A stretch of 64,000 nt of DNA from Amphiscolops sp. MND2022 (lineage: Eukaryota), in contig OZ076409.1 of NCBI GenBank assembly GCA_964187785.1, forward strand, positions 14,758,001 through 14,822,000, in the 5' to 3' direction. Below, piece by piece: positions 2,869 through 39,762 of the stretch. The position numbers and the translations under genes were made by a program. Within the stretch, counting starts at the first letter, position 1. Every line of letters starts with the position of its first letter. The notes beneath the pieces are model-generated. The model had not been told where the DNA came from. It saw only the letters and a list, made by a program, of their open reading frames with translations, and made no database searches.

Positions 2869-3489
2869 ATGAATCTTGTAATTTTCTTCGCAGCATCGCT
2901 TCAACTAGTTTCTTGTTTCATAATCCGACGTGATTCGGATGCGACCAACTCGTCAGATGCACAGAACTGCGAATCGGCGACTGGAATTGTTGAGCATATC
3001 AACAAAAGATACAGCAGAGACAAGAAAGAGCCGGCGGGATACATCGTGGATTTGGTGCAGAAACGACAAGAGCTCACTCATTTCCAGGAGAACTCGCAAA
3101 TCTGCGCATCCGTAGCCGAAGAGGGATGCAACACGAAATGTTTCTGGTTCTCAAACATGTTTCCCGAAATTCAACTCGAGACAGAATTGCTGGTTCAAAT
3201 CTCACAAGATGACCAATGCGACGAACGATGGGAACCAGTTTCGGCCGTCATAGAATCTTGCGAGCCCACTGAAAAAGTTCTATTTTATTTGCCACTCAAT
3301 GTAACCAAAAAAAATTCGTGAAACGACTTCATAGTTTGGGAGACGAGACCGCTGGAACGAGTTCCAGTCAGTCATGAATGTTCAGAGGAGCCAACTGGAG
3401 GTTGTATGTTGAACAGACGAGTCACTAAGCAGACCAATGCATCTTACACAGTCGGCCACAGGCTAGCTATTAGAGTTTTGGGTAGCTGA
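2869..3489 (+). CDS. Secreted Cys-containing protein, cystine-knot cytokine-like (IL-17/trunk/PTTH-like), interrupted by in-frame TGA at 3319-3321
   Basis: Signal-peptide-like MNLVIFFAASLQLVSC; motifs NMFPEIQLE, CEPTEKVLFYLPL and YTVGH resemble the IL-17-type pattern. The frame stays open 55 codons beyond the TGA to the stop at 3487-3489. Confidence 0.5.
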
Positions 3490-3708
3490 CTTGGTGATCG
3501 TTGTTCAAGTCACAGCCTGACAAAAACAGCTAAATTTGAAACCAGAAGCCTCAACGTCAAACCAACCAGTAAGGAAATCTTGCCAAATTGTGGAATTTTC
3601 CAAATTCTTAATGCTTGTATAGCCAATTTATTTCTATTGATACTGAGTTACCAAGTTTTTATAGTCTTGTATTTATGAAATATTTATAGCTTTCAAATTG
3701 AAAACGTA

Positions 3709-3871
3709 CAGTAAACCCTCGATTATCCGCCACCTTTGGTCAACCGCCACAAATCTACGGGGACATTTTGCTATACCACCCGTGTCTAAGCTCCCTTGAT
3801 TAACCGCCACTCTCACTTATCCGCCATAATTCGCGCTGGACCGATGGTGGCGGATAATCGAGGGTTTACTG
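3709..3871. mobile_element. Tc1/pogo (Tigger-like) MITE
   Basis: TIR CAGTAAACCCTCGATTATCCGCCACC / GGTGGCGGATAATCGAGGGTTTACTG, flanked by TA on both sides. Confidence 0.9.
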
Positions 3872-5307
3872 TATATTTAAACTTTTATTTATTAGCAAAA
3901 TTTGAATTTAAGAATTATTGAAATGGTATTCATGGTGTCAGATTGTATTTTGTGGAAATCAATATAATTTATGAATTCAGATGAGTGTTTTTTTGCATAC
4001 AAAAAAGTAATTCGAGATTGATAGCAAGCAGAACAACACAATCAACGGGCACTTTGGAAACTCGAGAGATTCCTAAACCTCATATGAGCAAAGTTTCAAA
4101 ACGAAAAAGATACTAGACCAAGAAACATGGATTTACTTAATGATACCGTTGAACGGAATGCAACATTTCAAGTGGTCCAGAAATACCAATATGGGATTTC
4201 CGCAATAGAAACCTGTTCTTGGATCATTTCAGCATTCCGTCCATGAAAGCATGTATCGTGAGAATTAGCTTTGTCTGGCCAGCAAAATGCCACAATTTTC
4301 GCGTGGTCCCAAATTTAGGAACGAGTTATTTTTGAGGTCATTTAACATGCGTGGGAAAATTTCAGTAACAAAGCAGGAACATTACGTGGCAATAAAACTA
4401 CTCAATTAAGCCATGTTTTACTAAGGTATCATAAAACTTACAACGGAAATGCCTTCCGCTTCTTAAACAACTGATCCTTCCATGATTTCCAAATGCCATG
4501 TTGAAGCATAGAATTAAATATAATAGAAAATTACGTAGCAAAATTAAAGACACTCAACTCAAGGGAAAGAGTTATTGAATCAATTCAGTACGTAACAAAC
4601 CATTTAGCAACTTTCAGATAGCCTAAATAGTTTACTTTTCTCGAAAGGGAGAAAAACTTCCGTAAATAGCTTTCTTTGAAACCTCAAAATCAATTTAATG
4701 CCCGGAACGAACAATACTTCTATGTTCTGAGAATATGAATTCGAAATTGTGGCAAATAACAGCACCACGTTCATGAAGGTTTCAAGGTCAACATGCGATC
4801 AAAACATTTTTCCCAATTACGGTCCAAAAATTCGAACTACTATAAAACACAATTTGCAGTTTGGGAAGTCCAGGTTAAAATATAAGCGGGTTGCAATGAG
4901 CAACGTTCATATACATGCAGTGCCCTGAACACAAAAGTACAACGGCACACCATTAAAGTTCCAGACTTGGTTTTACTAAAACTGTCCAAAAAGGAAGCTG
5001 AGGAAAAAGACGTAATAAATTTGGCGTGGTTGAATAAATTTCATTAATTAGCAACACAACCTTTTCAAGTTGACAAAAACATACGGAATTGTTGAGGGTT
5101 CCATTCGCTAGTTTCAACATCGAATGCTACCGAGATAACAAAAACTATTGCGAAAAACAGAAAGGACTTCTACAGGTTTTCTTTCAATTGAAAAATTTAC
5201 AACTAAACACTATATATTAGAAATATATTAGCGAGATCGAACCAACAACGAATTCGACTACAGTGAAGGTAGTCAAGTTGTGAGATAATTTGCATTCTAC
5301 ATCGGAA

Positions 5308-6636
5308 TCAGCTGATGATTTTGGTCACAACAATTGCATCCGAGTCGGTACCCTCTTTCCTTGGATCTTTCCAGGTTTCCAGAGTTTCCATCCATGAATC
5401 GGGATTAACAATGGTAGTCAGCTCCTCACTATCTGAACATCTTAATTTCCGTCGCTTCCGATAAAACCAACAGCGGAGATATTCGATATGGACCTCTGTG
5501 ACGTCAGATAATGCTTTAAGGCTATCCGTTGTAGGTGAATGGTTGAGTTTGAAAAGGGTCTCCAACAATTCAGTTTTTTCTGGGCTCAGTTCTTGACGAC
5601 CACCAATTATGGGCTGCCTTCGAGGTCTACACACAAAGGATCGATGACTCAAACCCATGCTTTTACAATAGTCAAACCACGGTTCCATTTTGTTCAGCAG
5701 TGTTTTCGCATGTCCAATTGAAACGTTCTGCTTCTCAAGCTGCGAAATCTGTGTCTGAAATTTAAAAACCAAGAAAGACTTATTGGAGAAAACGATTTCA
5801 GAGTAGAAACCATTACGTGAAAAAGTAAAGATTTCCCTTTTAGGTCATATGGTTGAAACAACTCTTTATTGATGATAATTCTTTATAGGAGACATCCGTC
5901 AAAAACCGGGATTTTTCGCCTTTGCCCGTAAACGATCATGATAGACAGTCGGATTTGAGTCTCGAACATTTCGACAAGAAAAACATTTGAAAAAATTTCT
6001 AAACAAAAAATGGACCCTGAATGGCCAAAAGCGGGCACGTTAGGTCTAAAACAATTGGATGGTTGACTTCTATATATAGTTGTGCAGTCTAGCAGAAACA
6101 TTTTCACCACCTTTCGTGAAGACGAAATTAAGATGGATAGTTTAAAAATCCCGGGTTGGCAAACGGCTGTTATTAGACCTGAATAAAATTCGTGCAAATG
6201 TTTCTTTGATTGTTAAACAAAATGATGGTAAAACGAGGGACGGATAATCGAAGTTTTATAGTTTCAAAAAATAAGGGAAATCTCATTCATATTCACAATT
6301 TTATTTACGACAATACTATCATACAAAATACCTAACGACCAGCTGAATGGTCCTAAAATTAGATGATGATCAATTACCTGAGAAACATCAACGCTGTACT
6401 TTGTTTTCAAATGTGTAGACAATTCCAATTGGGTCATACTGAAGGCTTGACGGAACAGTTCAATGAGCTCCATGCGTTGTTTCAAGGAGGAAAAATCGGG
6501 AGAGCAACCAAACGTACTGAAGGGTAGGTCCTTCACTTTCGTCTTTTGCTTCACATGTTTGACAGTAATGTGAAAGGTTTGATAATTGCACTTTCGTTTA
6601 ACGATCGGTCGACATTGTCCCACAATTTGCCTCTGC
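5308..6636 (-). CDS. Highly divergent POU-class homeobox gene; exons 6636-6378 and 5754-5308
   Basis: Splicing the phase-0 GT-AG intron 6377-5755 gives FRQAFSMTQLELSTHLKTKYSVDVSQ|TQISQLEKQNVSIGHAKTLLNKMEPWFD (POU-specific-like). It is followed by the homeodomain LSPEKTELLETLFKLNHSP...YLRCWFYRKRRKLR. Confidence 0.8.
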
Positions 6637-6760
6637 CTGAAATAAAGTTTAGTATGATAATTGAAAGACAATCCTCGATAATTGACAACCTCATAAAATA
6701 AACAGGTGTCAGTACGGCAGAGGCGGTTTTAAGGGGGCGCCGCTCGCCCTGGAGAGATGC

Positions 6761-7087
6761 ATGGCCACAGAAAATACTGACCACCAGTTGGAACAAAGTT
6801 TGCTCCAAAAAAGAAGACAAGCAAATCGGCCAAGACAGATGGAACAAAACTTTCAATTCGTAGAGAAAATTCCTGCATCTAGAAGGTCTTTGATTCGTTG
6901 GATAAGTCAGATGCAGTTCCACGCACTGCTCATCAATCGGAAGAGACCCGGTAGCAGTTCCGACAACCGAGGAACTGTGGTCACTCCCGGAGCTACGAGT
7001 TTCGTTAGAAATATTTACGGCTTTGACATCGTAGGTAGAATTAGAAGTGACGTCTTCGCCAACAGCTTCAAGCCCCTCACTGTGCAT
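6761..7087 (-). CDS. N-terminal fragment (cytosolic tail + TM1) of a MATE/SLC47-family transporter
   Basis: ELKVLFHLSWPICLSSFLEQTLFQLVVSIFCGH matches the metazoan MATE start (EL..L..LA.P.....L.....S.FCGH). Similarity stops abruptly after CGH. Confidence 0.75.
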
Positions 7088-8405
7088 ATCATACTCCGGG
7101 ACCTGGAATTATTGCGAAAACTACATATAATCATTTTTGAAAAATATCAGAAATAAAAAGTTTTATAATTTCATCTAGTTTATATTAGTATATTTTTACA
7201 AATAGCTGGTTTTGAGCAAGAGCCGAGTAATGAGCCGAGTTTTCCTAGTTTCAACTGGTGCTGTCGTTGCAGTGCGTCCGTGTTGAAAATCCGTCAACCC
7301 GTTGAGAAAATCCTAAAACCATACCTGGAGGACAGTAAATAATTTTCGGACCCAAGCTTATTTCCTACCACTCCATGGCATGTGTTACTGGGAATTTAGT
7401 ATACCCTGTATTCAGATGTTATTCTTCATCAGTTGCCTTTTTCACTATTATACCACCTATTTTTAGTTGCCTTCGGCTCGAATATACGAAAAAGCGCGTA
7501 AGCCAAAGAAGTGCGCGCATTCTGCATACACAAGAGAGCCTTTTGACGACATAATGGTTGATGAAATCGGCCCATTTGGGGTTCAGTAATATTTCTCAGT
7601 GAACAGAATTCTCAGCGATTTCTAATTCCAAACAAATTTCTCAAAAAGTTTTGAATTTTGGAAAGTGGCAAAACAGGTCATTTTGACTGAAATCATCCAA
7701 AACTGGGGCTGGAAACGTTGTTACTTGACTGAAAGAAAGTACTTCATTGAACGCCCTCGTGACTAGGCTCAGTATAATTTCAGGAGACGTGAAGTGTAAT
7801 CGCGCGAATTTTCAGCCAATCAAATTTCAGCGTCTCGCGAGTATACACAACAGTGAAAGTTTGTGAAAATGATTTGATTGTCCACATCACTGCCAGGCCT
7901 GGTACATAAAATCACTATGACAACTGGCTCAGGACAATCAACACTCTGGGGTATCTGGACCATTCTGTTGGTCTGTTGAAACAATTCTCATCTCAACTAT
8001 CTCGAATTAGTCCATTGCCTCTATCTTTATGATCAAAACAAGAGCAGCAAGTTCTCTTCATCACAAAAAAACCCCAGAAAAATAAGAGTAATGAAAACTT
8101 AGAGACTGTTTACTCGTACCGTGGTCCCAATAGCTCAAACTGTGTCTCAATTATTTAACACCTGTCCCTTCAAGAAGCCGAAAACCAGTTCTCTGGCACG
8201 GCCTGCTGAACAATACGTTAACTTCTAATTCGAAGAACACACCACAGCATTGCAGAGCTAAGTTGGTACAATGTCATAGCATTCGACAAAAGTTCGGAAA
8301 AACCCAACCGCAAATTGTCATAGTGTGACAAACACAGGGAGGTGCTGAAGATAGGAAAGAAAAATTACGCGCGTGGAAGCTGATGCAGCATCCCTGGACA
8401 AGGAG

Positions 8406-11400
8406 GCGTCGCCACCTGTATAAAGAAGCTCAGGAAACACCCAATTCACTCACGTATCGACTCCACATGGGCAAAAGTACAAACCGGAAATAAAATGGCA
8501 CTCTGTTGTGCTTAATAAGAGGGGGGGTCATATTTAGAGGGGGGGTCTAGCAAATTTCTGGCGGACAGTAAGAGGGGGGTCTAAACAGCTCCTGAATTCT
8601 AGAAAACATTTTTTAAAGCAGAAAAATAAAACTGAAACGCATCTCTTACACTACAAATGTTTATACAAAACAAAACAATTATTTTCCGGCCGGCTTTCTG
8701 AATTTTCGTCTTTGTTGATTGATTTCCGATATCAGTTTGTTTGGTTCGAACCTGGGCGTGAGCTTTTTTTCTTTCGTGTTTGCTACCAGGGGGGGTCATA
8801 ATTAGAGGAGGGGTCCCTGATTTTCAGGCCGAGACAGTAGTAGGTACCCCCCCCTCTTATTAAGCACAACAGAGTAATTGGATATGCAAACAAACCCCCA
8901 TTGACCCTGACCCGCACAAACTTCAGAAGAAAACTTGGAACAGCTCATTGCAGGAGACCTAAACTCGCGACATAAAATGTGCAGCGATAAATAGATGAGC
9001 AAACAGTGAAATGCTAACAAATGCACTTCAAGCCACATGCAGGAACAACGACGATGAGCCGACTTTCTGCATCACAAATAGTACCAGCGTCATTGATCTC
9101 TTCATTCTCACAAAATCTCCGAAAAACTCAAAAACTACAGTATACGAACAATGATATCGAACTTTTTACAGCAGCACCCTCCCGAGCAAAGGATCCAACA
9201 TGGTAACTTATGAATGAAACCGAATAAAAAGCCACAACCACACTAAATCTGGAGAAAGCGGACTGGCCAGGTTTTTACAAAGAATCGCTAGCTTTCGAAT
9301 TGATAGAAAATGCGCTCAGGAATATCACAAAAATAACGTTTGGAATGACGTCAACAAATTGCTGTCTGGAAATCAAATAGCGGTTTAACACCGCTTCTCA
9401 AGAATGGAAAATGTTCTTTTTTCAAAAGCAGAACGAGAGAAAATTTTGCACGAAACGCTATTCACTTGAATGTTATCTTCGTTTATTGCTTTGAATGTAC
9501 ATTCCAGTTTTGACAACGTAAACGAAAGCTCTTCTTCCCGAAAGGTTCGATTGAACCATCCAGTCTGATTATCGTCGGACGAAGTGTGAAGCGAGGCTTC
9601 TTTCTGGCCTCTGAAAATTTCGGCAGAATTGGTACCAGAGGTGCTTCCCCCTCAAAATGCTTAAACATGCTGGCAATTGTTTCATGAGTCATGTTCCTGT
9701 TAAAAAATGTCTCCAAGAAGAAACATGGCCATGGAAAACCTACAAAGTAATATTCCTACGAAAACCTGGTAACTGACTATACAAATTCATCCTCGTACCG
9801 ATCAGTAACGACATCAAGATATGTCGGAAAACCAGATGAAAGACTAAATGGAAGCGATATTGCGTTCTTTTGACAGCCCACATCAACAACTCGAGGAAGA
9901 ACAGAAAGGCTTTAGACCTCCCAGAAGTACTGTTCGTCTGGAGTATCGGTTGAAGACCAAGCTAATTGAATACAAACAAACACTCGCGTCGCCACCTGTA
10001 TAAAGAAGCTCAGGAAACACCCAATTCACTCACGTATCGACTCCACATGGGCAAAAGTACAAATCGGAAATAAAATGGCACTCTGTTGTGCTTAATAAGA
10101 GGGGGGGGTCATATTTAGAGGGGGGTCTAGCAAATTTCTGGCGGACAGTAAGAGGGGGGTCTAAACAGCTCCTGAATTCTAGAAAACATTTTTTAAAGCA
10201 GAAAAATAAAACTGAAACGCATCTCTTACACTACAAATGTTTATACAAAACAAAACAGTTATTTTCCGGCGGGCTTTCTGAATTTTCGTCTTTGTTGATT
10301 GATTTCCGAGATCAGTTTGTTTGGTTCGAACCTGGGCGTGAGCTTTTTTCTTTCGTGTTTGCTACCAGGGGGGGTCATAATTAGAGGAGGGGTCCCTGAT
10401 TTTCAGGCCGAGACAGTAGTAGGTACCCCCCCTCTTATTAAGCACAACAGAGTAATTGGATATGCAAACAAACCCCCATTGACCCTGACCCGCACAAACT
10501 TCAGAAGAAAACTTGGAACAGCTCATTGCAGGAGACCTAAACTCGCGACATAAAATGTGCGGCGATAAATAGATGAGCAAACAGTAAAATGCTAACAAAT
10601 GCACTTCAAGCCACATGCAGGAACAACGACGATGAGCCGACTTTCTGCACTACAAATAGTACCAGCGTCATTGATCTCTTCATTCTCACAAAATCTCCGA
10701 AGAGCTCAAAAACTACAGTATACGAACAATGATATCGAACTTTTTACAGCAACACCCTCCCGAGCAAAGGATCCAACATGGTAACTTATGAATGAAACCG
10801 AATAAAAAGCCACAACCACACTAAATCTGGAGAAAGCGGACTGGCCAGGTTTTTACAAAGATTCGCTAGCTTTCGAATTGATAGAAAATGCGCTCAAGAA
10901 TATCACAAAAATAACGTTTGGAATGACGTCAACAAATTGCTGTCTGGAAATCAAATAGCGGTTTAACACCGCTTCTCAAGAATGGAAAATGTTCTTTTTT
11001 CAAAAGCAGAACGAGAGAAAATTTTGCACGAAACGCTATTCACTTGAATGTTATCTTCGTTTATTGCTTTGAATGTACATTCCAGTTTTGACAACGTAAA
11101 CGAAAGCTCTTCTTCCCGAAAGGTTCGATTGAACCATCCAGTCTGATTATCGTCGGACGAAGTGTGAAGCGAGGCTTCTTTCTGGCCTCTGAAAATTTCG
11201 GCAGAATTGGTACCAGAGGTGCTTCCCCCTCAAAATGCTTAAACATGCTGGCAATTGTTTCATGAGTCATGTTCCTGTTAAAAAATGTCTCCAAGAAGAA
11301 ACATGGCCATGGAAAACCTACAAAGTAATATTCCTACGAAAACCTGGTAACTGACTATACAAATTCATCCTCGTACCGATCAGTAACGACATCAAGATAT

Positions 11401-13142
11401 GTCGGAAAACCAGATGAAAGACTAAATGGAAGCGATATTGCGTTCTTTTGACAGCCCACATCAACAACTCGAGGAAGAACAGAAAGGCTTTAGACCTCCC
11501 AGAAGTACTGTTCGTCTGGAGTATCGGTTGAAGACCAAGCTAATTGAATACAAACAAACACTCGCGTCGCCACCTGTATAAAGAAGCTCAGGAAACACCC
11601 AATTCACTCACGTATCGACTCCACATGGGCAAAAGTACAAATCGGAAATAAAATGGCACTCTGTTGTGCTTAATAAGAGGGGGGGGTCATATTTAGAGGG
11701 GGGTCTAGCAAATTTCTGGCGGACAGTAAGAGGGGGGTCTAAACAGCTCCTGAATTCTAGAAAACATTTTTAAAGCAGAAAAATAAAACTGAAACGCATC
11801 TCTTACACTACAAATGTTTATACAAAACAAAACAGTTATTTTCCGGCGGGCTTTCTGAATTTTCGTCTTTGTTGATTGATTTCCGAGATCAGTTTGTTTG
11901 GTTCGAACCTGGGCGTGAGCTTTTTTCTTTCGTGTTTGCTACCAGGGGGGGGTCATAATTAGAGGAGGGGTCCCTGATTTTCAGGCCGAGACAGTAGTAG
12001 GTACCCCCCCCTCTTATTAAGCACAACAGAGTAATTGGATATGCAAACAAACCCCCATTGACCCTGACCCGCACAAACTTCAGAAGAAAACTTGGAACAG
12101 CTCATTGCAGGAGACCTAAACTCGCGACATAAAATGTGCGGCGATAAATAGATGAGCAAACAGTAAAATGCTAACAAATGCACTTCAAGCCACATGCAGG
12201 AACAACGACGATGAGCCGACTTTCTGCACTACAAATAGTACCAGCGTCATTGATCTCTTCATTCTCACAAAATCTCCGAAGAGCTCAAAAACTACAGTAT
12301 ACGAACAATGATATCGAACTTTTTACAGCAACACCCTCCCGAGCAAAGGATCCAACATGGTAACTTATGAATGAAACCGAATAAAAAGCCACAACCACAC
12401 TAAATCTGGAGAAAGCGGACTGGCCAGGTTTTTACAAAGATTCGCTAGCTTTCGAATTGATAGAAAATGCGCTCAAGAATATCACAAAAATAACGTTTGG
12501 AATGACGTCAACAAATTGCTGTCTGGAAATCAAATAGCGGTTTAACATCGCTTCTCAAGAATGGAAAATGTTCTTTTTTCAAAAGCAGAACGAGAGAAAA
12601 TTTTGCACGAAACGCTATTCACTTGAATGTTATTTTCGTTTATTGCTTTGAATGTACATTCCAGTTTTGACAACGTAAACGAAAGCTCTTCTTCCCGAAA
12701 GGTTCGATTGAACCATCCAGTCTGATTATCGTCGGACGAAGTGTGAAGCGAGGCTTCTTTCTGGCCTCTGAAAATTTCGGCAGAATTGGTACCAGAGGTG
12801 CTTCCCCCTCAAAATGCTTAAACATGCTGGCAATTGTTTCATGAGTCATGTTCCTGTTAAAAAATGTCTCCAAGAAGAAACATGGCCATGGAAAACCTAC
12901 AAAGTAATATTCCTACGAAAACCTGGTAACTGACTATACAAATTCATCCTCGTACCGATCAGTAACGACATCAAGATATGTCGGAAAACCAGATGAAAGA
13001 CTAAATGGAAGCGATATTGCGTTCTTTTCACAGCCCACATCAACAACTCGAGGAAGAACAGAAAGGCTTTAGACCTCCCAGAAGTACTGTTCGTCTGGAG
13101 TATCGGTTGAAGACCAAGCTAATTGAATACAAACAAACACTC
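8406..13142 (+). repeat. Three near-identical tandem copies of a ~1.58-kb unit (8406-9985, 9986-11563, 11564-13142)
   Basis: GCGTCGCCACCTGTATAAAG starts at 8406, 9986 and 11564; identical ORFs recur in the ORF track. Confidence 0.97.
8501..8874. mobile_element. Tc1/mariner-type MITE inside each 1.58-kb unit (copies from ~10081 and ~11659)
   Basis: TIR CTCTGTTGTGCTTAATAAGAGGGGGG / CCCCCCTCTTATTAAGCACAACAGAG; flanks CA/TA; interrupts the LINE endonuclease region. Confidence 0.85.
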
Positions 13143-14682
13143 GATCGGCGCGTTGTGGACTTTGCGAAGACATTCGGCGAAGTCTGGACTTGTTTACTTG
13201 ATTTGTCATGTTCGAGCCAAAAATGCTGAAAATTACAGATTTGGTAGTAATACGATTTTCAAAATCGAAAAGATAGAAAAGCGCAATTTATGAGAACCTA
13301 TAGCTCTATCGTATGTTATTGTTGCATTCGTTTTTTTTGAGCAAAAAATTGCCAGCGCAACGGTGCTCCCGAATAAGTTATACTATAATTCAAATGAACA
13401 TCAATATCGAAGTGCCAATTAATTAATAGCCATTAAGGAGTACATTGAAGTTGAGTGCCTAGCAGCAACAAAACGAGATCATTTCACTTTGTTTGGATTA
13501 TTCTAATGATACCAGCCGCCGTCAAATTTAGTTGAAAATATATTTATACGCAGCGGCCTGTATTCGGAAAACAGGAGAAAATAGCCATTCATGGCAATAA
13601 AATACCTAGGAATTAAGGTTTCTACATTCCCTGATTTCTATTATTCAAAAATAGTTACATGAGCCTTTCGTAGGAGTGCGGAAAACACTTACTTCTGGTG
13701 CAATTTATGTCTGCGAAGATCATTTTCATTCAAATGTTTGACGTTCCAAAAATTGGTATATTGATGATCATTCAGTTCTTGTAGCGCTGCATCAAAGGTA
13801 ACACGTGGTTTAAAAATTTTTTGAATTTCGTTTTTGGTTGAAGCCACATCGGGCTCTTTTGCCAAAGGTTGAGCACATCGTAGGGGCTTCAGAAAGCTGG
13901 ATATGGGGCTGAGGGGAATCGGATTCATCACGAAGTTACATTTCAACCTGAAAACATTCACATTTTTGACAATATGCAGATCGACAACTTTGTGCTGACA
14001 TAAACCGAAAATAGGCGCGCTGTGCTTGGACCCGAGCTATCACAGCTGTAGGCCAGTAAAGCCCAAAATGCATGCCCAAACGAAACATGGAACGAGATAG
14101 TCCCCCAGACAACGCGAACAAAGAATATCTGAAGCGATCTACAGGGATTGTGGCTACCATGAATAGTAGTATGCGTTATCGTTTATTTCGTTTTTTGGTT
14201 GCAAACAACGGTGTTTGTCATCTAGTCTCTATATGATGACCTAAACGGAACTAGATAAATGACGACGATCTATGTCATCTGAGAGAGGTCTAAAAAGCGA
14301 TACTTCTAATTTCTCCTAAGCCTTTTTTTCTTTTTTTTCCTTTCTCTATCAGATACCAGAAGAAAGAATTTGAACTTACTCTGATGCGTATATTAATAAA
14401 TGAACGTATACAAAAGAATATTCAAACAACTAAATGAACACAGCACCAAAGGGGACCTTCCAAAGGTATTCCTGATAGGGGGAGGACCCCACAAACACAG
14501 GGGCATCAGCGAAAGACTTCGTCTGCCAGAAGTTCGCAACATATTTTGTTCTTGAGTTTCATTTAGTGGTGTTTTCCCCAAAGACTTTTTATCAAGTGTT
14601 TTCCAGTTTGAAAGCTACGAAAGGTTTCCAATCTTTAAACCTGGGAAAAAGATCAATCGTGAGAATTATAGACCTATATCAA

Positions 14683-15670
14683 TGTAACGTCTGCCACCGG
14701 GGGTGAACGGAAATGGGTCGAAAGAAATGGGTCGAATCGCCTCCTGTGCCATGGGTCGAATCTTCACCGTTTCGGAATTGGGTCGAATGGACTTGGGTCG
14801 ACCTTGAAAAATGCCAAGTTCAAAGGAGACAACATATTGATTTCGGACTATTCGACCTCAGTCAATTCGACCTAAGTTATTCGACCAAAAGGGTCGACCT
14901 AATTCTTTTCGAACTATTTCATTCGACCTATTTCATTCAACCCACTTCATGCAATCCTGCCACCGGCATGACCAAAATTTCGATGAAAAATTCGAAATGT
15001 GCGATGTCAAACCAGAAGAAAAAAGATGGCCGACCTAGCAGGAACAAAAAAAGCATGAAAGAAAAAAGAAAATACACGGAGAGCGAGCAAGAAACAGAGC
15101 ACGTGTGAAAGAGTTGCAGAAATGGATGAAAAATTGCCAGAAGATGAAGAAACATCAGCAGAAAGATCATCGGAATGTTGTGCCATCTCCTTGGGAAATC
15201 AACAACATCTGCAGAGCCTTGCCAGAGGCAAAATATGGATGATGGACTGAAAACTGTAAAGTAACTGGGGCTTATCCCCGTTTTCCCTTATTATTTCCAT
15301 ATTTCCCCTTTAGTATTTGGAAGATGTTTGACCTTCTAGGTCTTTTTATATCTTATTTGCCAAATACTATCTTTTCCAGCTGATCACCGTTTTTGACCTC
15401 GGAAGCATGTAGGAACTCGTAGGAACGCACTAGAAACCTTAGGGAACGTTTTTACAGGCTTGTGGGGCGTGTCCGGACTTTGAGAGTGCCGGTGCGTCGC
15501 TTCGGAGCTCTAACTAGAGAAGCCTCCTTAGACGTCAGAAAAGTCCCCGTAGGAGACCATTTTGGTACCAAAAACTAGTGTCTAGGTATGTAGTAAGACA
15601 ACGGTCTCCTGTTTAAGCATCCTAGGCATTGTCCCTCTTCCTAGATGTGCGTCGCTAGCCGGTCGTTACA
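14683..15670 (+). repeat. 5' LTR (contains a 257-bp MITE)
   Basis: Starts TGTAACGTCTGCCACCGG, ends GCCGGTCGTTACA; matches 33214-33944 apart from the insert and scattered substitutions. Confidence 0.95.
14701..14957. mobile_element. Mutator-like MITE (GGTCGAA subterminal repeats) inserted in the 5' LTR
   Basis: 9-bp TSD TGCCACCGG (14692-14700, 14958-14966); absent from the 3' LTR; GG..CC ends; inverted GGTCGAA/TTCGACC arrays. Confidence 0.88.
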
Positions 15671-15686
15671 TCTGGAATAGTTTTTA

Positions 15687-15704
15687 TGGCGACCACAGAG
15701 GGAT
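15687..15704 (+). promoter_or_regulatory. Primer-binding site, tRNA-Arg(TCG)-like
   Basis: TGGCGACCACAGAGGGAT is close to the reverse complement of the metazoan tRNA-Arg(TCG) 3' end; it lies 16 nt after the LTR. Confidence 0.75.
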
Positions 15705-18662
15705 ATTTTTCATTTTGCGTATAAGTAGGAGCAACTTCTGCTTTCCGGCCCCGAAGGGTCCAGATCTAGGAAAACTTATGGGAGAGTCCTAGATTATTCT
15801 TATCGCCTTTTTCTGGCCCTTTGGGCTTTGTACTAATGCTGTCCCTGCGTTTTCCGCATGTTTCCGAGGTCTACTTAGAAAAATTAAAGGTTTCTGACAG
15901 TGTACCCCCTTTAACCTTACTAAAGCCTAATAAAAAAGCTGTTCCGGCCTATCCGGAACGTGTTTTAAGGGGTTTTCTAGCTTGATTTTAGCTAATTTGC
16001 AATGTATGGGGACAGAGAGGACGAATGCTGAAGGCTTCCACCAGCTGTGCTGACGTGACGACGTTTGCAGTACGCCACGTCAAACGGGTGAAATCGTCCA
16101 TTTTCTTATTTTAACGGCCCAAAAAGAATATTCCCAGGCCTATTCCCATTACAACTAACTGAGAAAAATACCCAAAGGGTATTCCGATCAGTTATTAAAA
16201 AATTTGAGCTTGAAAACCTCGAAAATAACGTTATTTATAGCTCAAATACCAAAATTTTCAATTTTGAAAGCCAATATTTCGTCAAAAAGAGTGAGGCCAG
16301 TGGGAATACTAGAAAAACGTTCCAATAGACCCCCTTGGTCAGAAACAAAATTTTTTGTGGGGCCAATTTTCCAAAAACAGTGAGAAATTCAGCGATTTTT
16401 GTTTAAAAATTGTCAAATTTGGCCATTTTGACCCAATTTGTTAAGGGCAAAGCATTGGACATTAGCTTCCAAGCTTCTGAATCAGCCCAAAAACCTTTTC
16501 CCCTAGCTTGGTAGTACGAAACACTATTGCCAAAAAGCTTTTTAAGGCTCCCCAATAGAAATTGAAACTTTAACAACTTTTTTCTCTTGATATACATAGA
16601 CCTGAGTAGAGGACCCCATAGACCTGAGAGATATAACATCAAAAATAATATTTGAACGAACCCCAGCCCCCTAAAATAAGTTGTCATTTTCCATTCAGTA
16701 CTATTGGAACAATCCCGAACGTCCAAGAACCGACAGATAGAAATTTCTTGGTGAAAACACGTTATTTCAGTGTTGTTCCGAGAGTGTAGAAAGTGCAATA
16801 TGAAAATTTTTTGAGAGACCTTTTTTGGAACCTACCAGGTTTCGCTTGCCCATTTTCTGTTAGTATAAAGTATAACGTTACAAACGCAGAAAACCGCGAG
16901 TGATTCCAACCAGTGGTTGTTGAGAAATAGCCGAAAACGCGTTATTTTTGCGACATTTTGGGAACCATGTAGTAGTGCTTCCAGCACTAGTCGAAATCTC
17001 TCCTAATAGAAGCAGCCTCAAACAGATTACACCATCGTGTAGCTCACAAAGAGTTACGTTAGTGGTGTAATTTTTGTAGCGCTAGCATTACTAGTGATTA
17101 AGAAATCTTAGCCGCAGTTTTGCTCAAAAATCGTGTGAAAATGTCGAAAAAAAACTTTAGTTGAGCATAGTGCAATACCTTGCAGGTATCCCAGCACTAA
17201 AATTCTTGCATTTTCTTACGTACTGCACTAAATCCCGACGATTTATGCAATTTGAGCAGCCAGTGGCTAGCCAAAGCTGAAAAATCGACATTTTTGTGAA
17301 TTTTGACCCGTCAATGTGGTACCTCTGGTACATCAAGGTTTTATCACCTCGAATAGCCAAGTATCGCCCCAGGCACCTCGCCGCCGTGTTTTTCCAATAC
17401 CTGGGCACAAGGTACGCTCGCACGCAAAGTTTCAGGTAGCCAGGACGCCTACAAAGCGAGTTTGACCACTTTTTACAAATTACACGACATAGTCAATTTT
17501 TCAAAGAACATTATTAAAGGGCCGCAACACCCACAGGGTAAATTTTGGCACAATCGGCATTCAGTTCCCCACGATTCAATTAATGTAGTATACGGAGTGA
17601 AATTTTCAAGTCACTACGAGCCCGGGAAGTGATTTTCACCCTTCCCAGACGTGCCGATTGACGACAAATCCGCTAGTTTTGCGAAAACTGAACAGAGCAC
17701 GGCACTCTTTCAGTCCCAAACGACCCGTATAAGGACTTGAACATAACCCTTAAACATAAAGAGCACCCCCTACGCTCCCAACAGAGTCGCATTAACCGCC
17801 ATAGCAGTGCTTCCAAAACCAAGAGCCTCCAAAAAGATGCCCAGTTGACCAAAGAAATTGCGCACTTTAGTACCGAATTTGCTAAAAAAAGTGAAACTGT
17901 AGCACCATCAACGCAACAGCCTCAATCAAAGTTACCTTCCAAACTAAACGCCTTCTTCCATACTAGTTACCGAGTCCCGTTCCAATCCCCATCCATCCCA
18001 CCATACCCGAATCCGAAAGTCGGAAAGACTAGGTGAGTGACAAGCTTAGCCAGTCGAAAGAGCGCACTGCGCTTGAAACATCTATCTCGACCATTACCAT
18101 TCAACCCAATCTACCACCCACAGCACTAGCCACAATTCAATAGGCTCCTCCATAGCTTATTCCAAAGTAGATTAGCAAGTAGAACGTAAATAGTCAAAAA
18201 AAAACTTTTTCTGTTTGATAAATCAAAAATCCATTTCCCTCCACTCTGTGCAGACAGAGAACGAAACTTCAGTTAGTATTAATACATAGAATTACACTAG
18301 CCCAATTACCAAAGGTAGTACAAACTTTTTGTTAATCGCGACCCTATGATCTCACCCCAACCACAGCGCGACCACACCCATGTAATCCAGTTAATTTTAA
18401 TTTTGAAAAACTGCAACGAGCACCTGTTATTACCTTCCATCCTCTCTTTCAGGGGGACGAACAAGACAAATAAACCAAAAACACCATTGTTCAAAAATTC
18501 CCCTTTAGTTCACGATCAGAATCCAAACGCCAAAAACTAACCAGAAAGAACTGGAACCCTCCCAAAAGCTTCCATGCTACTGATCCTTTTAGTAACGTAA
18601 TAGAGGACGCAACCCGTTGGGAGACCCTTACCGACAACCCACAGAAACCAACTATTGCAGAT

Positions 18663-21106
18663 ATGTTTTCAGAACTCATGTCTGACTATATTTCCAACAC
18701 GGAACAAAACATGGAGATGACAACCGCAGCCGAACAACTCGGTTCGTCGCAAGCTTCCCCTGATAGTACTGATCCAGTGGATAGTACCGGAAGCACCACG
18801 CGAAACAACGCGTGGCCCCTTCTAGAAGTCACTGACTATAGCCTAGAGGAGTGGTTAAACTCAAATAAAAAACCCCCGTATGAAACAAGTGAAGCCGAAG
18901 AAACGGCATCACAAAACAGCAATCACTCAACTCCTGTAGCGCCCCCCGCACTCCTTCGATAAATAAGAACCCGCTGGATTCCCACGCATTAGACATTAAC
19001 GCGAATCGAAACGATCAAACCCCCTTTCTAAGCGGATACGCACAAAAAGCAGGGCCATCCACGGCACCTACCAAATCAAATGACAACCAACCAACACAAG
19101 TGGAAGACAACCCATTGCGGTACGTCTTTAGGACACCTCCATCAAGAAACCTGGATCTTGTCCCAAGACAAATAGACAAACCAAACTACACACCTAACTC
19201 CAGAGCCAGTGCAGGCACGGCCCCAGACTCGACCGTAACCAAGATCACAAAAGAATCACAAGCCGCGAGAGAAGATTTTCGAAATACCCTGGCCCAATTG
19301 TCACAAGTACATTCACGATTGTCACGAGAAAATACTGAACACGTGATGAGAGCTGATGTCATTATGAGGGACATGGATGAAATGAGGAAAGGCCTGTTAG
19401 AAATACAGGCTGAAGGACGTCAGAGCCAAGGAAGATTGGAAGCATCCATGGCCTCTCTCAATGACTTGATAAAACAAAGAGAAAACATGGCAGACACACG
19501 CATGGCCGAAATGTCCGCAGTGATGAAAGAAAGAGATCATCAAGCACACGAACGGATGAAAATGATGTCAGACCTCATGCAACGCAGAGAGACTGACGCA
19601 AACACCAGAATGATAGATCTGATGACCACGATGAAGGACCTGACATTAGGAGTGAGAGCAATGGCAGCCCAAACTGCAGCGGCTCAGGCAAAAATAACGC
19701 CAGCGGCGCCAATGACCTCTCACTCAGACGAACTGCCTTCCACCAGCACTGCCCCAAACCCAACACAAGCCACCTACCGCAAAATAGACCAGTCCAACGC
19801 CGAGCAAAATGAACCTCTGAAGTTGATACCACCTGCAACATAGAAAAAAGATCAACCACGAACCAACAAGATGATGAGAGTAATCAGAACAGAATCCTGC
19901 GATGTGGGCACGGACCCACTAACCAGTGTCTCATTTGACCCTTTTGCTCGTGGTGCATCAACAACGGGAGATTATTGTTCACCCGCAAGCGGCATGACTA
20001 CAAGAGAATCAAACTATTATACCGCCAAGACCAACATCAGCGAGAAATCCTCCAAGCAAGCATACTTAGATTTGATCCCGCGGCCAGTGGCAACTAGCAC
20101 GCAGCGAAAATCCACGACAAAGAGAAACTTAGAACAAGACAACGACGAGATGGAACAGCTTCCAGAAACGCCAAGCGCAACACCCGACACCCCAAGAACT
20201 AGCCAACGACAAGCATTGGCGGAAGCGATTTCAACCGCATTGTCCAAAGGCTTGGAACCGCTGCTCGCGGTGAAAGAATCGAAGAACAAACCCACGAAAT
20301 ATCGAGGGACCAAGGACGGAAACGCCGACGGATGGATGATGTTGATGAAACGTCACTTAGAGAAGGCACATGCCAGAGCGACTCCCCTCGACAAGGCCTG
20401 GAATATAATAGAGTATCTAGGACACGAGGCCCGAGACTACATCACCAATAAATCCGAGGCGGAAAGAGACACCGACGAAAAAGTCTTTACATTACTGGCA
20501 CGACGATTCGGAACTGGGTCAAGCAAGATCCATATACAGCAACAATTCCGAACACGCAACCAGAACAATGAAGAAGACTACATGCAATATCTCGATGCCC
20601 TCGAGGGTCTACGCAGCCAAGGCTACCCTAACGAGGAGGTGATCGTTCGCAGATACGAAATAATGCAAAAATTCATCGAAGGTGTACGCAACTTCGAACT
20701 AAAAAGAAACCTCGCACTGATGTATGCGCAAGAACAGTACGTTGAAGCACCTCCAACAGTAGAAGCGCTTCGCTTCACTGTTCAAAAATACCTGCGCATG
20801 CGCGGTTCTAATCGTCCAGAGAATTATCAAATGGCTCCGCCTCAACAATCTCAGCCTCCGCAACCGAATCAACAACCGAAATTGCCCCAGACAATTCCAC
20901 CACCTATACAGCAACCCCAACAAGTTCCACCTCCACCACAATTGGCACCCTACCGACAACAACCCCAACGAGCATGCTTTAACTTCGTGATCGATTGCCC
21001 ACTCAAAGACCATGCACGAAAACCAATACAACAACAAGTAAATTCTTGCCACACAAGCCCATCTGGTGGATGGACTTGCCCTTCACAACCACACGGGGGT
21101 GAATAA
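18663..21106 (+). pseudogene. gag: Gag (long low-complexity/coiled-coil N-terminus, capsid domain, damaged Zn knuckle)
   Basis: KPTKYRGTKDGNADGW...RFG...FRTRNQ...YLDALEGL...FIEGV is a Ty3-type capsid pattern. CFN-FVIDCP is a knuckle with a deletion. In-frame TAG at 19841-19843; upstream frameshift. Confidence 0.85.
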
Positions 21107-24100
21107 CGAAGTACACCCAGCATCACTACCTATCCAAGGGACTGTAGCCTTCTGTATCAATTGTGGATGCACTGAGCATTCCGCATCAGAATGTATAGCC
21201 CCAGAATACCCTAGACAAGAAGAACAAATTAGGGCAACATGGTATGCTCCGCATACCAACCAGTTTGATGGCGTACCGCAGGATGATCAAGTTAGAGTAA
21301 TCTCGGTAGCAGAGGCCGGAGGCCCTTCTCGTCCCGTCGTCATTACTTGCGGCGAAAAACAAGTGCTTACCACGCTAGAAGCACCCGCCCCGGACTGCAC
21401 CGAGACACTCATATCTATTCACTTACTCCTCTCGGCTGAACTAAAATCGCGTCCCGAACTGACACTAGCGCAATTAAAGGAAGACCTGTGTAGAAACACC
21501 AAGTATACAATCACCGCTCGACCGTTACCGCACTTCACCCGGGAGGACGAGACCAAATTAGCACCAATCCAAAAAGTGAAGACAATTTCCCCAGTACCAG
21601 TGGCCATTAACGTAGACGGGGTCGACTTGAAATTTGACGCCATCGTAGTAGTAGAAGGTTATTTCCCACAGGGATTATACCTGGGTCGCCAGGAGTTGAG
21701 GTGTTATAACATCGGAGTGCAAGACACTCAAGGGGAAGCTCGCATTGACGAACGAGCATCACTGGTAGTTGCCTTTGGCAGCAACCTCCAGGAACCCATT
21801 CCCTTATATGGTATGATCGACACGGGTTCAGGTGTCTCTATTCTCTCCCTTGCCGCTTACCAAAAGATTGCTTCCGCCCATTCATTGAGCCTCATGCCGT
21901 ATGACGTCCAGCTATACGCAGCAAACGGCAAAACCATAACGACTGTCGACATGGCTGAGAGTGTGAGCTTCCAATTGGGTAGCCACACACTGAAGACCAA
22001 CTTTATTGTCATAGTTGACCACCTAGGAGCTGAAGACTTCCTGTTAGGACGCAACTTCTTACGCACCTATTATGTCCTCGTGGATTTGACCGCAATGAGG
22101 GTCACAATCCGAGACCCAAAAACTCCACGCCATTTCAAACCTGACCATGAGGTTAGTGACCACGAACCTTCGTTGGTAGTGTCCACCGACAAAGTTGTAC
22201 TAGGACCTTTCGAACGTAAGTTGGTTAGAGCACAGGTCATCACACAGGACCCCAACCAATATCGTTTCCGTAATGTAATGATACGCCCCAGCGGGATGTA
22301 CAATCGAAGTTCCTTTATTTCAGAAGACACCCTAACTTCAGTGGGAGACGACGGCACGGTGTACCTAACCATAAGAAACAAAACCGCTACCGAAAACGTG
22401 CAAATACCAAGCAAAATTGTCCTTGGCAAGGCGGAGCCTACCATTTTTATGTTTAGACCGGTTTCGGTCGACCAAGCCGATGGAACCTCCATGCCTCTGA
22501 TAGAACAAGTTAATAATAATAACATTGTTGATCTTGACGACACAAGCAGTGAATTAGGTTCTTTCGCACAAAACTTCCTATCGTCTACTGAGTTGTCGGA
22601 AGAGGAAATGTCGGAAAGTGAAAAACGCGCCCAAACCAACCCCAACCTATTAAAACCAATACCAGGCCCTGACCTACCCTCTGTCCTTTCGTCTTGGGGG
22701 GAGGGAGCGAGAGAACAATTAGCAGAAGTTTTAAACGAGTACGACGACCTCTTTATGAAACATAAGGCCGACATAGGAAAACGTACAATAGCAAAATATC
22801 GTATTGAATTAGAACCACAAGCTATCCCCCACAATGAGGGCGCAAGGCGAATGTCTCCAGACAAGGCTGCCAAAGCCAATCAAGAAGTAAGGAACCTCTT
22901 AGCCTTAGGCTTAATCCAACCCTCCTACTCGCCTTGGGCTGGTGGAATAGTAATGGTAAAGAAAAAGACAGGCGAACTTCGCTTCTGTTGCGACTTCCGA
23001 CCGCTAAACGACGTAACAGTAAAAGACGCATTCCCCCTTCCCAGAATAGATGAAAGTCTGTCCAGAATAGGTAACGCTAAGATCTTCACGAGCATCGACC
23101 TAGCGTGGGCCATTTGGCAAATACCACTGAATAAACGCGATAGAAGGAAAACAGCATTTGCCTGTGAATTGGGTTTGTTTGAATGGCAACGTATGCCCTT
23201 TGGGCTATGCAATGCATCCGCCACCTTCCAACGATCCATCACTAGAGCGCTACAAAAAATCCAACAGAGACACGGGAGTGTCGTCATGGCCTACATTGAC
23301 GACATAGTGATTGCAACCGAAACAATGGAAGACCACATAATGAGAATCAAAGAAGTATTCGAATGTCTCAGAGAGGCAGGCTTCAAAATGCGAGCAGAAA
23401 AGTGCGACTTCATGCGCACGGAAACCAAATATCTGGGACGAATAGTATCAGCCGATGGAATCAAGCCCGACCCAGAAGCAGTGGCTAAAATCCGAGAGTG
23501 GATGCCACCAAGGAACGAAGAAGAACTCCAAAGCTTCCTAGGATTCGCCAACTACTATCGCGATTTCGTCCCATTCCACGCCGCCAAGGTGCAACCCATG
23601 CAGGAATTGCTAAAGAAGAATCAACACTTCAGTTGAGAAGAAAGGCACCCAGAAGCCTTCGACTCGGTGAAACAAGCCCTATCCGACGCTACCACTCTAG
23701 CTGCACCGAATGAACAAGGACGGTTCGTGCTAGATACTGACGCCAGCACGGTAGCGATCGCAGGTATTCTACATCAAGAACAAGAATACAATGGCAAAAC
23801 CATCCTGAGACCAATAGTATACGGCAGTAAATCACTGACCAAGACCCAACTGAACTATGGTGCCCCCAAGCTGGAAATGTATGCAGTGTTTTACTTCGTG
23901 GAGAAATTCCACTCATACCTAGCAGGTAGAGAGTTTACGCTTCGCGTAGACAACCAAGCCCTGTCATGGCTCAAAACTTACTCCATGGACCAAGCCATGA
24001 TTGGCCGTTGGATCGCACGTCTAGACCAATATCATTTCAAAACGATCCACAGACCGCGTACGCAACACCGAAATGTCGATGGACTCAGCAAGCGCACCAA

Positions 24101-25891
24101 CGACTATTTTAATCTCGAACAAATCCTTAAAAAGCCACCAGAGGTAAGCGAAGGATTCAATTTCATGTCACAAAAAGACTACGACGAACTCCCCACAGTT
24201 CCATACTTCGACAAACGTGGTCATCTAATTCCAGACCACCCAAAACTCCCTCCAGAAGCTCGAGCTCAACTACCCCTGTTATACATTCTTCAGAAGAAAC
24301 GAAAGAGCAAACAGCCCGAAGAGCCAACCAGGATTACCCCCTGGTATCCCGAAACTCAATGGGAAACCACACCGACTCTTGAAGAAAACGAACGACCTAA
24401 CCGAATTTTGAGCATAACCACAAGAGTGCCTCCGGCACGAATAGACACCACTAAACCCGATCCAACTCTAAGGTCACTCCCTGTCGAATGTCAAAAACAA
24501 GCAGACGTTTTGAGAACCATCGATGCAGAACTGCACGAACACCACCTAACCAAATATGGCCTCCGAGACCTACACATGGCTCAGAATAGAGACGTACATC
24601 TCTTGGCACTGAAGAAACTCATGAAGAACGAGCCCTTAGAAGGTCCAATGTTCCCAGATTAAATACAAGACTTCGCCAAGAGGTATTACCATCAAAAAAA
24701 GGATCTACTTATCTTAAACCCTGACGACATACTCTGCGTCAATTACGTTCCTCAACAACGTGCTCTCCACGTACGCCTTTGCATGATAATCATGCCGCAA
24801 CTTTTCCAACACGAAATCTTGTATCGAGCGCACGATGAATCGGGACATCAAGGCGTGGGAAAAGTGCTGGCCAGGATACAAGAACGACACACTTGGCCAG
24901 GAATCAAAAGGGACGTAGTAAACCACATCAAACAATGCTTAACTTGTCAACAAGCAAAGCACCCAGCAAAAAATCCTTGCTACCTGCAAAGCATCAATAG
25001 TAGCAATTTCAACGACCTGGTTCAATTTGATCATTTAAAGCTCTGCAAAACAGACTCTGGCAACACCGGCCTTTTGGTAATAATAGATCATTTTACCAAA
25101 TTTGCGGAAGCAGTCCCATGCGCTCACGACGAATATGACGCGCAAACCACGCCAAAATCTATCCGAAATAAATGGTTTGCCAGGCATGGCACTCCTGCTA
25201 GGATGCAATCAGACAATGCGACAAACTTCACCGCTGAGGTCGCCCAGGAACTTATGAAAGCCTCTCAAGTCACCAAAGTTACGTCTACCCCAGCACACCC
25301 CAGAGGAAATGGACTCGTGGAGCGACAGAATAAAACTTTACTCACTTTGCTCCGAGTCTACACATCGCGCAGAATGCAAGACTGGGATGAATACATTGAT
25401 GGAGTCCTAGGCGCATATAATTCCACCCGAAACGCCACTACAGGGTTTTCACCCTACATGCTCCATCATGGCGCAGAAAAATCCATCCCACTATCATTTA
25501 TATACCCAGAGTTCGCAGCGCGAGGCTTTGATTCCCAAGAAGAGTTCGTGGAAAACCTATTGGCCAGACAACGAGAAATCCATGAATTGGTTCGAAGAAA
25601 CACTCATCAAGCTCAGCTTCGGCAAAAGCTAAAATTCGACCGCCACGTAAAAGCAAAAGCGCATGCCGTCGGCGACGCTGTCTGGGTTTTTTGTCACAAA
25701 TCCCCAAAGGTGGTACTCGCAAGCTTATACGCGCTTGGCGCGGACCCCACAAAGTCACCGATGTACTACAAGATGGACGTCTCTACGTACTCGACACAGG
25801 TCAAAAAGTTCACTACGAGAGACTAAAGAAACACGTACCAGCCCCTGGGACTGGACTACTTACCAACCTTTTGGACCGGATCAAAATATAG
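21066..25891 (+). pseudogene. pol: Pol: CCHC knuckle, protease, RT, RNase H, integrase
   Basis: CINCGCTEHSASEC; IDTGS (D at 21819); RMPFGLCNA and YIDD (23292); DTDAS..E..DN; HDESGH..CLTC, QFDH..SDN..VER; WRGPH. Stops at 23634 and 24660; frameshift near 25700. Confidence 0.97.
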
Positions 25892-28163: not shown

Positions 28164-28504
28164 ATCCTCATAACTGCAGGGCCAGAGGCCAGCCCTCCTT
28201 ATTCTTCTGAAAAACCATCCCACTTTCCTTATTGACTTTCTCGATACGTGCGAACTAGTCCGTAGGATTTTTAATGACTGCACTCTATTAAGCTACAAGT
28301 CTTCCTAACACTTACTCGGTTTTTTAAGTTTTAACCATTTGTATTCCCTTCTTAACTTTTTTGATATACCCTATGAAACTCCTCTCTACTCATGTGCAAC
28401 TTGCTTTTCAGTTTTATCCTATTGCTTCGCCCTTGCGCAGCTTTCCTAACTTGCACCATCACTCACTTTCATCGATATCACCCTATTCCCTATCAGTGCT
28501 ATCA

Positions 28505-32664: not shown

Positions 32665-33205
32665 AGGAGCAACAACCGACGCTGACCCGTCTACCAAATG
32701 AAAACCAGAGCTTACCCTCAAATGGACACAACCTCATCCTAATGGTCCTAGACCATTTCATTTTTGTTGGTGCTAAGACACTGAATTCCTGAGCAATACT
32801 CATTATATGCTTAAAATTTTAGTTAAACCATGCTATGTGGGTGGGCCCTGAGCCAGTTCCCACCCTCTCCAATTCGGTATTTGACCATTGTTACCAAGAC
32901 CCGAATTTTGTTACCCCGAGAAGTGCCAGAGCACCTTCTAGAAAAAAGATTTTAACCTAAGTTCGTGGAATTGCATGTAATTTTTGAAACCGTCTGCCAT
33001 AATTTTAGTTTTGTCAAGTAAATTTTTAAGTTGTCGTTAGACTGACTGATATTAGTACGAGGAGATAACAAGGAAATTTGGAGGTTGAAGGAAAACAAAT
33101 AAGAAAAAATGAAACCTTCCTAAGGTGTTCAGAAAACTCTCAACATTGCTAGCACCCTCTGGGTATTACATCCTCTTCTTTGCCGAGGACGACAAACTAC
33201 GGCCC

Positions 33206-33213
33206 GGGGAGGA
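33206..33213 (+). promoter_or_regulatory. Polypurine tract
   Basis: GGGGAGGA immediately before the TG of the 3' LTR. Confidence 0.8.
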
Positions 33214-33944: not shown

Positions 33945-34183
33945 CAATCTTATCGGTTCTGAGCAAACTCTTTGAGCGGGTAGTTTTCGAGCGACAATTA
34001 AATTCATGCAAGTGAACAATCTTTTCTATTGTAAATTCGGATCAAAAATAAGTACACTGAATGCACTAAGGGGCATATTGGAAACGATCCGAAATGATAC
34101 CCAACTTGATGTATCCTGTATGCTATTGAATCTGTAAAAACGGCGTTGTTAGTGATATGTCGAATGATTGGCGAGGTTAAATA

Positions 34184-34257: not shown

Positions 34258-34266
34258 ACTTTCACA

Positions 34267-37061: not shown

Positions 37062-37092
37062 GTATCCAATGCGTTGCCCTTAATCATCAGTG

Positions 37093-39726: not shown

Positions 39727-39762
39727 ATATATATATAATAATATATATATATATATATATAT
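39727..39762. repeat. (TA)n microsatellite
   Basis: Directly visible. Confidence 0.95.

Follow-up and report, generated by a model that had tools for sequence, protein, structure and literature searches.

A truncated copy of a MATE transporter gene ahead of a divergent POU-like gene in Amphiscolops sp. MND2022

Gene content of the locus

The window analysed here is a stretch of 64,000 nucleotides of contig OZ076409.1 from Amphiscolops sp. MND2022 (assembly GCA_964187785.1). It is eukaryotic DNA with 33–49% GC and contains one gap of 200 Ns (45,088–45,287). On the minus strand the 5′ part of a MATE/SLC47-type transporter gene is followed by the exons of a POU-like gene. The initial annotation had taken the two for one chimeric gene, in which a MATE first exon is spliced in frame to a POU-homeodomain. 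The features, from upstream to downstream and in window coordinates, are as follows (a slash marks the exon–intron boundary).

7103..7324, minus: possible 5′-UTR intron, from a predicted donor CAG/GTATGG at 7324 (5 of 7 consensus positions) to the acceptor at 7103.
7088..7110, minus: acceptor-like site (TTCCAG ending at 7103, a putative acceptor judged by its sequence) and short leader, ahead of the MATE ATG.
6761..7087, minus: 5′ fragment of a MATE/SLC47-type transporter gene, codons 1–109, cut after His109; 108 of 109 residues identical to P0001.
6551..7087, minus: read-through ORF from the MATE ATG without splicing, 178 aa, ending ahead of the POU-like domain.
6690..6760, minus: junction DNA of 71 nt without MATE similarity, GC-rich at about 6718–6752, with an in-frame ATG at 6694.
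6637..6689, minus: proposed 53-nt intron, a candidate with a good acceptor, a branch-like TACTAAAC and a weak donor, GAG/GTTGTC.
6378..6636, minus: POU-like exon 2, with the N-terminal part of a POU-specific-like domain (6506–6378), an in-frame ATG at 6473 and a second candidate acceptor at 6517.
5755..6377, minus: phase-0 intron of 623 nt (GT..TTTCAG), well supported, interrupting the POU-specific-like domain after SQ and before TQ.
5308..5754, minus: last exon (exon 3), with the C-terminal part of the POU-specific-like domain (5754–5674), a linker, a divergent homeodomain (about 5610–5431) and the tail motif WKDPRKEG.

Judged by its domain matches, the downstream gene is a real and very divergent POU-like gene. 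Its description as a POU-homeodomain gene was right in part: exon 3 matches the Pfam Homeodomain family (PF00046) with 27.4 bits against a cut-off of 22.9, but the Pfam Pou family has no match on exon 2 or exon 3 scanned separately, and we file the gene as POU-like rather than as a POU member. In the PDB, exon 3 matches best to the POU domain of Oct-1 (E 1.7e-4). The alignment covers both subdomains and begins at a point in the POU-specific recognition helix that is exactly the start of the exon; five of the best six matches, of 23 in all, are to Oct-1. The same search with pieces of exon 2 gave no meaningful match, and a single-sequence AlphaFold run on exon 3 gave no usable model (mean pLDDT 39).

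Exons 2 and 3 were also set by eye, without gaps, against the Pit-1 POU-specific domain as printed in the accessible part of PMC4245813; 16 of 70 positions are identical, with exon 2 contributing 9 (of 43) and exon 3 contributing 7 (of 27). The 623-nt intron is supported because this gapless match spans both exons; the domain register runs across the intron without a gap, and the donor at 6377 (CAG/GTAATT) agrees with the consensus at 6 of 7 positions. Ten Pit-1 contact residues are named in the accessible text of PMC2425483, which gives Cys50 and Asn51 a role in DNA contact. Five of the ten are kept (Ser43, Gln44, Thr45, Arg5 and Arg46) and five are changed (Val47, Cys50, Asn51 and Gln54 of the homeodomain and Arg49 of the POU-specific domain). 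Cys50 and Asn51 are absent not only from the window, as Tyr50 and Arg51 are also found in a second copy of the locus, described below, and in a paralogue, P0005; at position 47 these two have Gly and the window Cys. Cys50 is a hallmark of the POU class.

P0005 is 61% identical to the POU-like protein. Since it shares the helix-3 changes and the tail motif, this comparison makes the POU-like family older than the junction, and it appears to be under constraint. A HMMER scan of 1.84 billion 50% representatives returned 30 matches: the second copy, the paralogue and 28 homeodomain-bearing proteins. Pfam shows no Pou family in these 28 (13 were scanned at E 0.01 and 15 at E 1e-8), and none of the 30 is an annotated orthologue or a full-length relative that would fix the native start. 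In JGI metagenome and GTDB contigs, 216 and 96 pattern matches to the POU-like exon were obtained, none of which was confirmed, and Atlas searches gave leads under 0.9 only, exon 3 pointing to the homeodomain and exon 2 to helix-turn-helix clusters. The accessible part of an acoel survey (PMC6125248) gives Pou2, Pou3, Pou4 and Pou6 together with a small number of ambiguous genes; judged by sequence search, our gene would lie outside the xenacoelomorph Pou2/3/4/6 families. No report on this family was found in a literature search that covered few subscription papers. The gene is of modest interest in itself: it belongs to a small family, with two or more paralogues, in which the two-domain layout is kept and Asn51 and Cys50 are replaced.

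Several other elements lie in the window. On the plus strand, an uninterrupted ORF of 150 aa (2869–3321) is convergent with the POU-like gene; it has a hydrophobic N-terminus, several cysteines and no Pfam match above cut-off, is found with one change on both public contigs introduced below, and likely encodes a small secreted protein. A 167-bp element at 3707–3873 has inverted ends of 41 bp, 90% identical to each other, and TA flanks; it resembles a Tc1/mariner-type miniature element. Three minus-strand tandem units of ∼1,578 bp (8406–13143; 98.7–99.3% identical) end 1.3 kb upstream of the MATE piece. They repeat exon-like pieces of a minus-strand gene that starts near 13946 and has no Pfam match above cut-off, and each holds a 376-bp element with terminal inverted repeats of 28–30 bp. 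An LTR retrotransposon of ∼19 kb (14957–33944) has protease, RT, RNase H and integrase in Ty3/Gypsy order, interrupted by stops; its LTRs are 95.6% identical, with CAATC on both flanks and the left LTR apparently missing its first few bases, and it carries an extra ORF of 860 aa (28864–31446) without a Pfam match. Nested tandem duplications (34113–45087; units of ∼1,093 and ∼5,584 bp, ∼99% identical) extend up to the N gap and could be real or an assembly overlap at a contig end.

The MATE fragment, its parent and the second copy of the locus

The similarity to MATE stops, as had been claimed, at Cys-Gly-His109 (nt 6761), and the window holds no further MATE sequence: tblastn with P0001 finds no other MATE-like stretch (next best E 0.099). 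The initial annotation had proposed a search for the parental genes, and this gave P0005 as the POU-like paralogue and P0001, which lies on a contig other than that of the junction, as the MATE parent. P0001 has 683 aa, is called as one ORF and contains two MatE domains by Pfam. It is 51% identical to a MATE1-like protein of the acoel Convolutriloba macropyga (XP_075259747.1), the sole named relative of the MATE piece, and aligns with human MATE1 over residues 67–510 (E 2e-77). A PDB search with the MATE piece gave no meaningful match.

The collection from which P0001 comes holds unspliced ORF calls (the exon-3 ORF and the 178-aa read-through ORF of the window were entered in that way), and P0001 is therefore likely to be a single coding exon of a gene that is likely intronless. 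Because its ORF of 683 codons runs on without interruption past His109, this residue would mark a break made at the DNA level and is not the end of an exon, contrary to the first-exon reading. The idea that the remaining MATE exons lie outside the window was rejected as well, as the parent likely has none. Of the proposal of a young exon-shuffled gene, the part that stands is the young MATE-derived DNA (1 of 109 residues changed) ahead of a POU-like gene. Exon shuffling does not fit: the break falls inside a coding sequence that is likely intronless, the proposed donor sits 71 nt into non-MATE DNA, and the join is not at exon boundaries of the donor gene, as exon shuffling would have it. What the locus does combine is sequence of two ancestral genes on one strand (MATE codons 1–109 and the POU-like exons, both minus), and the MATE part is a truncated, near-identical copy of an intact longer parent, P0001, as in a partial duplicate.

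The MATE piece carries 109 of the 683 parental residues and ends 23 positions into the first MatE domain, which has 161; from this content it cannot be expected to act as a transporter. The initial annotation had also suggested that the MATE promoter came along, a transfer that is putative, and that one helix would serve as a membrane anchor, but the best 19-aa hydropathy value in the MATE part is 1.54, under all 12 parent peaks listed (>1.6). Ahead of the ATG the leader reads FQVPEYDM in frame, and two MATE paralogues, P0002 and P0043, have FQILEYDM at the same place. Because they share residues there, the copied DNA appears to extend at least to the acceptor-like site, which would have come along with the fragment.

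The same two paralogues, on ENA contigs of 72,640 and 14,274 bp, are 65–70% identical at the N-terminus and apparently frameshifted soon after the first helices; broken copies seem to be a frequent product of this MATE family. Further upstream, 600–750 nt from the MATE ATG, there is a GC-rich patch on the minus strand (about 7690–7840), which may serve either the MATE piece or the POU-like gene as a promoter. It contains motifs that we take to be CCAAT-box-like, E2F-like and initiator-like.

An exact look-up of 10 window ORFs found five in the collection, all on an ENA contig of 49,824 bp, where the exon-3 and exon-2 ORFs are also found, which makes seven. Six of the seven have a counterpart in a second, near-identical copy of the locus, the lone exception being P0035, the ORF that crosses the MATE junction. 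P0004, P0037 and P0041, which lie on both sides of the junction, have variants with one change on a contig of 39,380 bp; P0038 and P0039 are identical on two contigs; and the second member for P0042, the exon-2 ORF, is known from its cluster count alone. No MATE-like ORF was found on a contig of that length in a search of ORFs of 63–270 aa (three matches among 78 candidates), the profile of which detects a 60-aa MATE piece at E 3e-15 in a local test, or in a search of 203–2,000 aa (three among 225). Because P0035 alone lacks a counterpart and no MATE-like ORF was seen on this contig, the second copy likely lacks the MATE piece. The absence is read from protein ORF calls, with contigs told apart by size, and a frameshifted or uncalled piece would look alike. 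The 39,380-bp contig is likely the other allele, although it could instead be a segmental duplicate.

The two copies also date the fragment. Its divergence from the parent (1 of 109 residues) is of the same order as that between the copies (1 of 126, 1 of 150 and 1 of 131), which argues that the MATE piece is very young.

The 49,824-bp contig is the sole public contig with the junction and may be the window's own (the window has its gap at 45,088), in which case it gives no independent check of the junction. A MATE piece misjoined to the POU-like locus during assembly would agree with this, with the missing ORF in the second copy and with the tandem triplication 1.3 kb upstream. We nevertheless consider such a misjoin very improbable: the MATE piece differs from its parent by one residue, the 71 nt after the break are present in neither gene, and the three tandem units differ from each other by 0.7–1.3%, as real repeats do.

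The junction and the proposed fusion

The GC-rich stretch at 6718–6752 had been called a remnant resembling a terminal inverted repeat. It is indeed GC-rich and next to the break, but it has no partner end in the window with up to three mismatches and forms no hairpin (z = 0.09). It has no exact match in JGI metagenomes, and the junction DNA as a whole has no second copy or partner repeat within the 64 kb. Its likeness to a transposon end, which we assume rather than derive from a search, together with the gene pieces borne by the tandem units upstream, would suit a MATE piece carried as cargo in a non-autonomous Helitron or Pack-type DNA transposon with one end in this stretch. The paired terminal inverted repeats of Pack-type elements, or the 3′ hairpin with a CTRR end of Helitrons, and a target-site signature were all absent within the window, where no target-site duplication was found, and we give the cargo hypothesis hardly any credence.

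The proposed gene model itself translates as had been stated. Exons 7087–6690 (398 nt), 6636–6378 (259 nt) and 5754–5308 (447 nt) give 1,104 nt and 367 aa with no internal stop, and the 53-nt intron (6689–6637) has both the GT start and the TACTAAACTTTATTTCAG end. An open frame of this kind is, however, easily obtained by chance. Between 6760 and 6474 there are 24 GT–AG pairs that give open in-frame joins. At least one such join was present in 647 of 1,000 dinucleotide shuffles of the junction (192 of 1,000 if the acceptor had to be YAG and have a pyrimidine tract), and with acceptor 6637 and exon 2 fixed an open phase-2 donor was present in 2,768 of 5,000; the frame across the 71 nt of junction DNA alone stayed open in 43%. 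Because shuffled junctions are so often open, the open frame of 367 aa is weak evidence for a fusion: chance gives as much.

The donor of the proposed intron, at 6689, agrees with the splice-donor consensus at 2 of 7 positions and at 0 of the 4 intronic ones, a score that is the commonest among the 3,729 minus-strand GT sites scored in the window. A neighbouring gene model seemingly relies on a poor donor too (GAG/GTCTAA near 13070), so weak donors may work in this genome. Without splicing, translation from the MATE ATG gives the 178-aa read-through ORF, which is P0035 (called on the 49,824-bp contig, a cluster of one, no Pfam matches). The fusion protein, which depends on the weak candidate splice site, is probably not the main product. 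One value runs the other way: the MATE frame stays open for 69 codons beyond the break, as it does in 4.4% of shuffles, and this counts against the explanation that we favour below. A codon-usage test was powerless here, as held-out MATE sequence scored like non-coding DNA.

The POU-like gene offers a case for splicing at 6689. Its likeness to the POU-specific domain of Pit-1, as printed, already begins ahead of ATG 6473, where comparison by eye gives 3 identities in 11 positions, and for this reason the gene probably requires a further coding exon upstream, in phase 2. The nearest candidate first exon starts at ATG 6694 and uses exactly the 53-nt intron, with donor 6689 supplying phase 2. If that intron is native, transcripts started at the MATE piece would be spliced into the fusion. 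Upstream of the MATE piece there are other phase-2 pairs of ATG and donor in which the donor is better (7747/7724 and 8391/8368); with either of these the MATE piece would sit inside a POU-like intron.

It is on the first of these options that an expressed newborn chimera would depend. The 53-nt intron would be the own first intron of the POU-like gene, and MATE-driven transcripts would yield 367 aa with the MATE N-terminal tail and first helix placed on a POU-like DNA-binding module. The open three-exon model, the good acceptor and branch-like site at 6637, and the fit of donor 6689 to the phase that the upstream similarity wants are all consistent with it. By analogy, young chimeras are often expressed: the accessible part of Rogers et al. 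2017 (PMC5460883) gives raised expression for 24 of 76 young segregating chimeras in D. yakuba. We still regard expression of the chimera as unlikely, though deserving some weight, given the intronic positions of the donor, the open joins in 55–65% of shuffles, the better donors upstream and a first MATE helix that is only mildly hydrophobic. The copy is also too young to bear any sign of selection and is likely absent from the other copy of the locus. In its fullest form, which we rate as distinctly unlikely, the proposal would be a newborn chimeric gene still segregating: on one haplotype, an acoel-specific POU-like gene would have acquired the MATE 5′ end, in frame, before its native first intron; carriers would make, under the transporter promoter, a 367-aa protein with the first membrane helix of the transporter and a POU-like module with a rewired recognition helix.

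A change of expression without any fusion protein is also conceivable. The MATE upstream region would drive a long precursor, from which spliced-leader trans-splicing at 6637 or 6517 would free a normal POU-like mRNA (ATG 6473), so that the site of expression was altered and the product was the same. Trans-splicing would be in keeping with the 30.2% of genes reported for the acoel Symsagittifera roscoffensis in the accessible part of PMC9911081, and acceptor 6517 lies 43 nt ahead of ATG 6473, a start codon in good context. For the present species, however, trans-splicing is argued by analogy only, and the copying of a promoter is putative. A start at 6473 loses 11 residues that match the beginning of the POU-specific domain, and with acceptor 6637 two short ORFs (ATG 6615 and ATG 6556) would precede the main one. 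We therefore consider promoter capture quite improbable.

A probable young partial duplicate among known systems

With somewhat more confidence than doubt, we favour the following account of the locus. It would be a very young, DNA-level partial duplicate of a MATE gene (codons 1–109 and the acceptor), placed upstream of a divergent POU-like gene, probably in only one of the two copies of that locus, and mostly yielding the dead-end frame of 178 aa instead of a fusion. The proposed course of events begins with what is found in the sequence: a near-identical, intact MATE gene elsewhere, with the break falling inside its ORF, and a POU-like gene with a near-identical second copy and an older paralogue. 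If the second copy lacks the MATE piece, the insertion would postdate the POU-like gene and still be segregating. The joint would have been made by illegitimate recombination or templated gap repair, with a gain of 71 nt of unrelated DNA; exon shuffling mediated by splicing would have played no part. From the MATE acceptor onward, transcripts would meet no good donor and would reach the stop at 6553–6551, ∼175 nt before the next intron; such read-through transcripts would likely be degraded, which would make the insertion neutral or, like a gene trap, damaging to the POU-like allele.

As a partial duplicate only, the locus would represent ordinary genome churn at the population level. Its importance would be greater were the chimera spliced: a newborn transporter–transcription factor fusion in the heterozygous state would permit an allele-versus-allele test of chimeric gene birth in the same animal. 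The literature covered, again with few subscription papers, contained no MATE–homeodomain fusion and no acoel chimeric gene.

The parent P0001 has both MatE domains of MATE/SLC47 transporters (PF01554; human MATE1), whereas the window holds 109 of its 683 residues, set against two such domains and about 12 membrane helices in that family. The POU-like gene has the POU-specific-like domain, linker and homeodomain in the order of Oct-1/POU2F1 and Pit-1/POU1F1, and differs from them in five of the ten contact residues named for Pit-1 in the accessible text and in having no Pfam Pou match on its separate exons. The proposed fusion would tie a degenerate homeodomain to a membrane segment, as in the CERS class, the only membrane-anchored homeobox class in the accessible part of the acoel survey (PMC6125248). 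The CERS proteins, however, are ancient enzymes with a TLC domain; no TLC domain is present here, and the fusion is putative.

The closest likeness is to the young duplicates of C. elegans and Drosophila. According to the accessible part of Katju 2012 (PMC3449122), partial duplicates outnumber every other class in population data from worms and flies, and most young duplicates of these animals are either partial or chimeric. Our locus, too, has a 5′ gene part beside another gene in the same orientation, a break in coding sequence, near-zero divergence and, probably, a copy that is still segregating. Unlike them, it shows within the window no tandem duplication spanning neighbouring genes, the parent MATE gene lies on another contig, and the case is known from sequence alone. 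We regard the locus as another case of the known young partial and chimeric duplicates.
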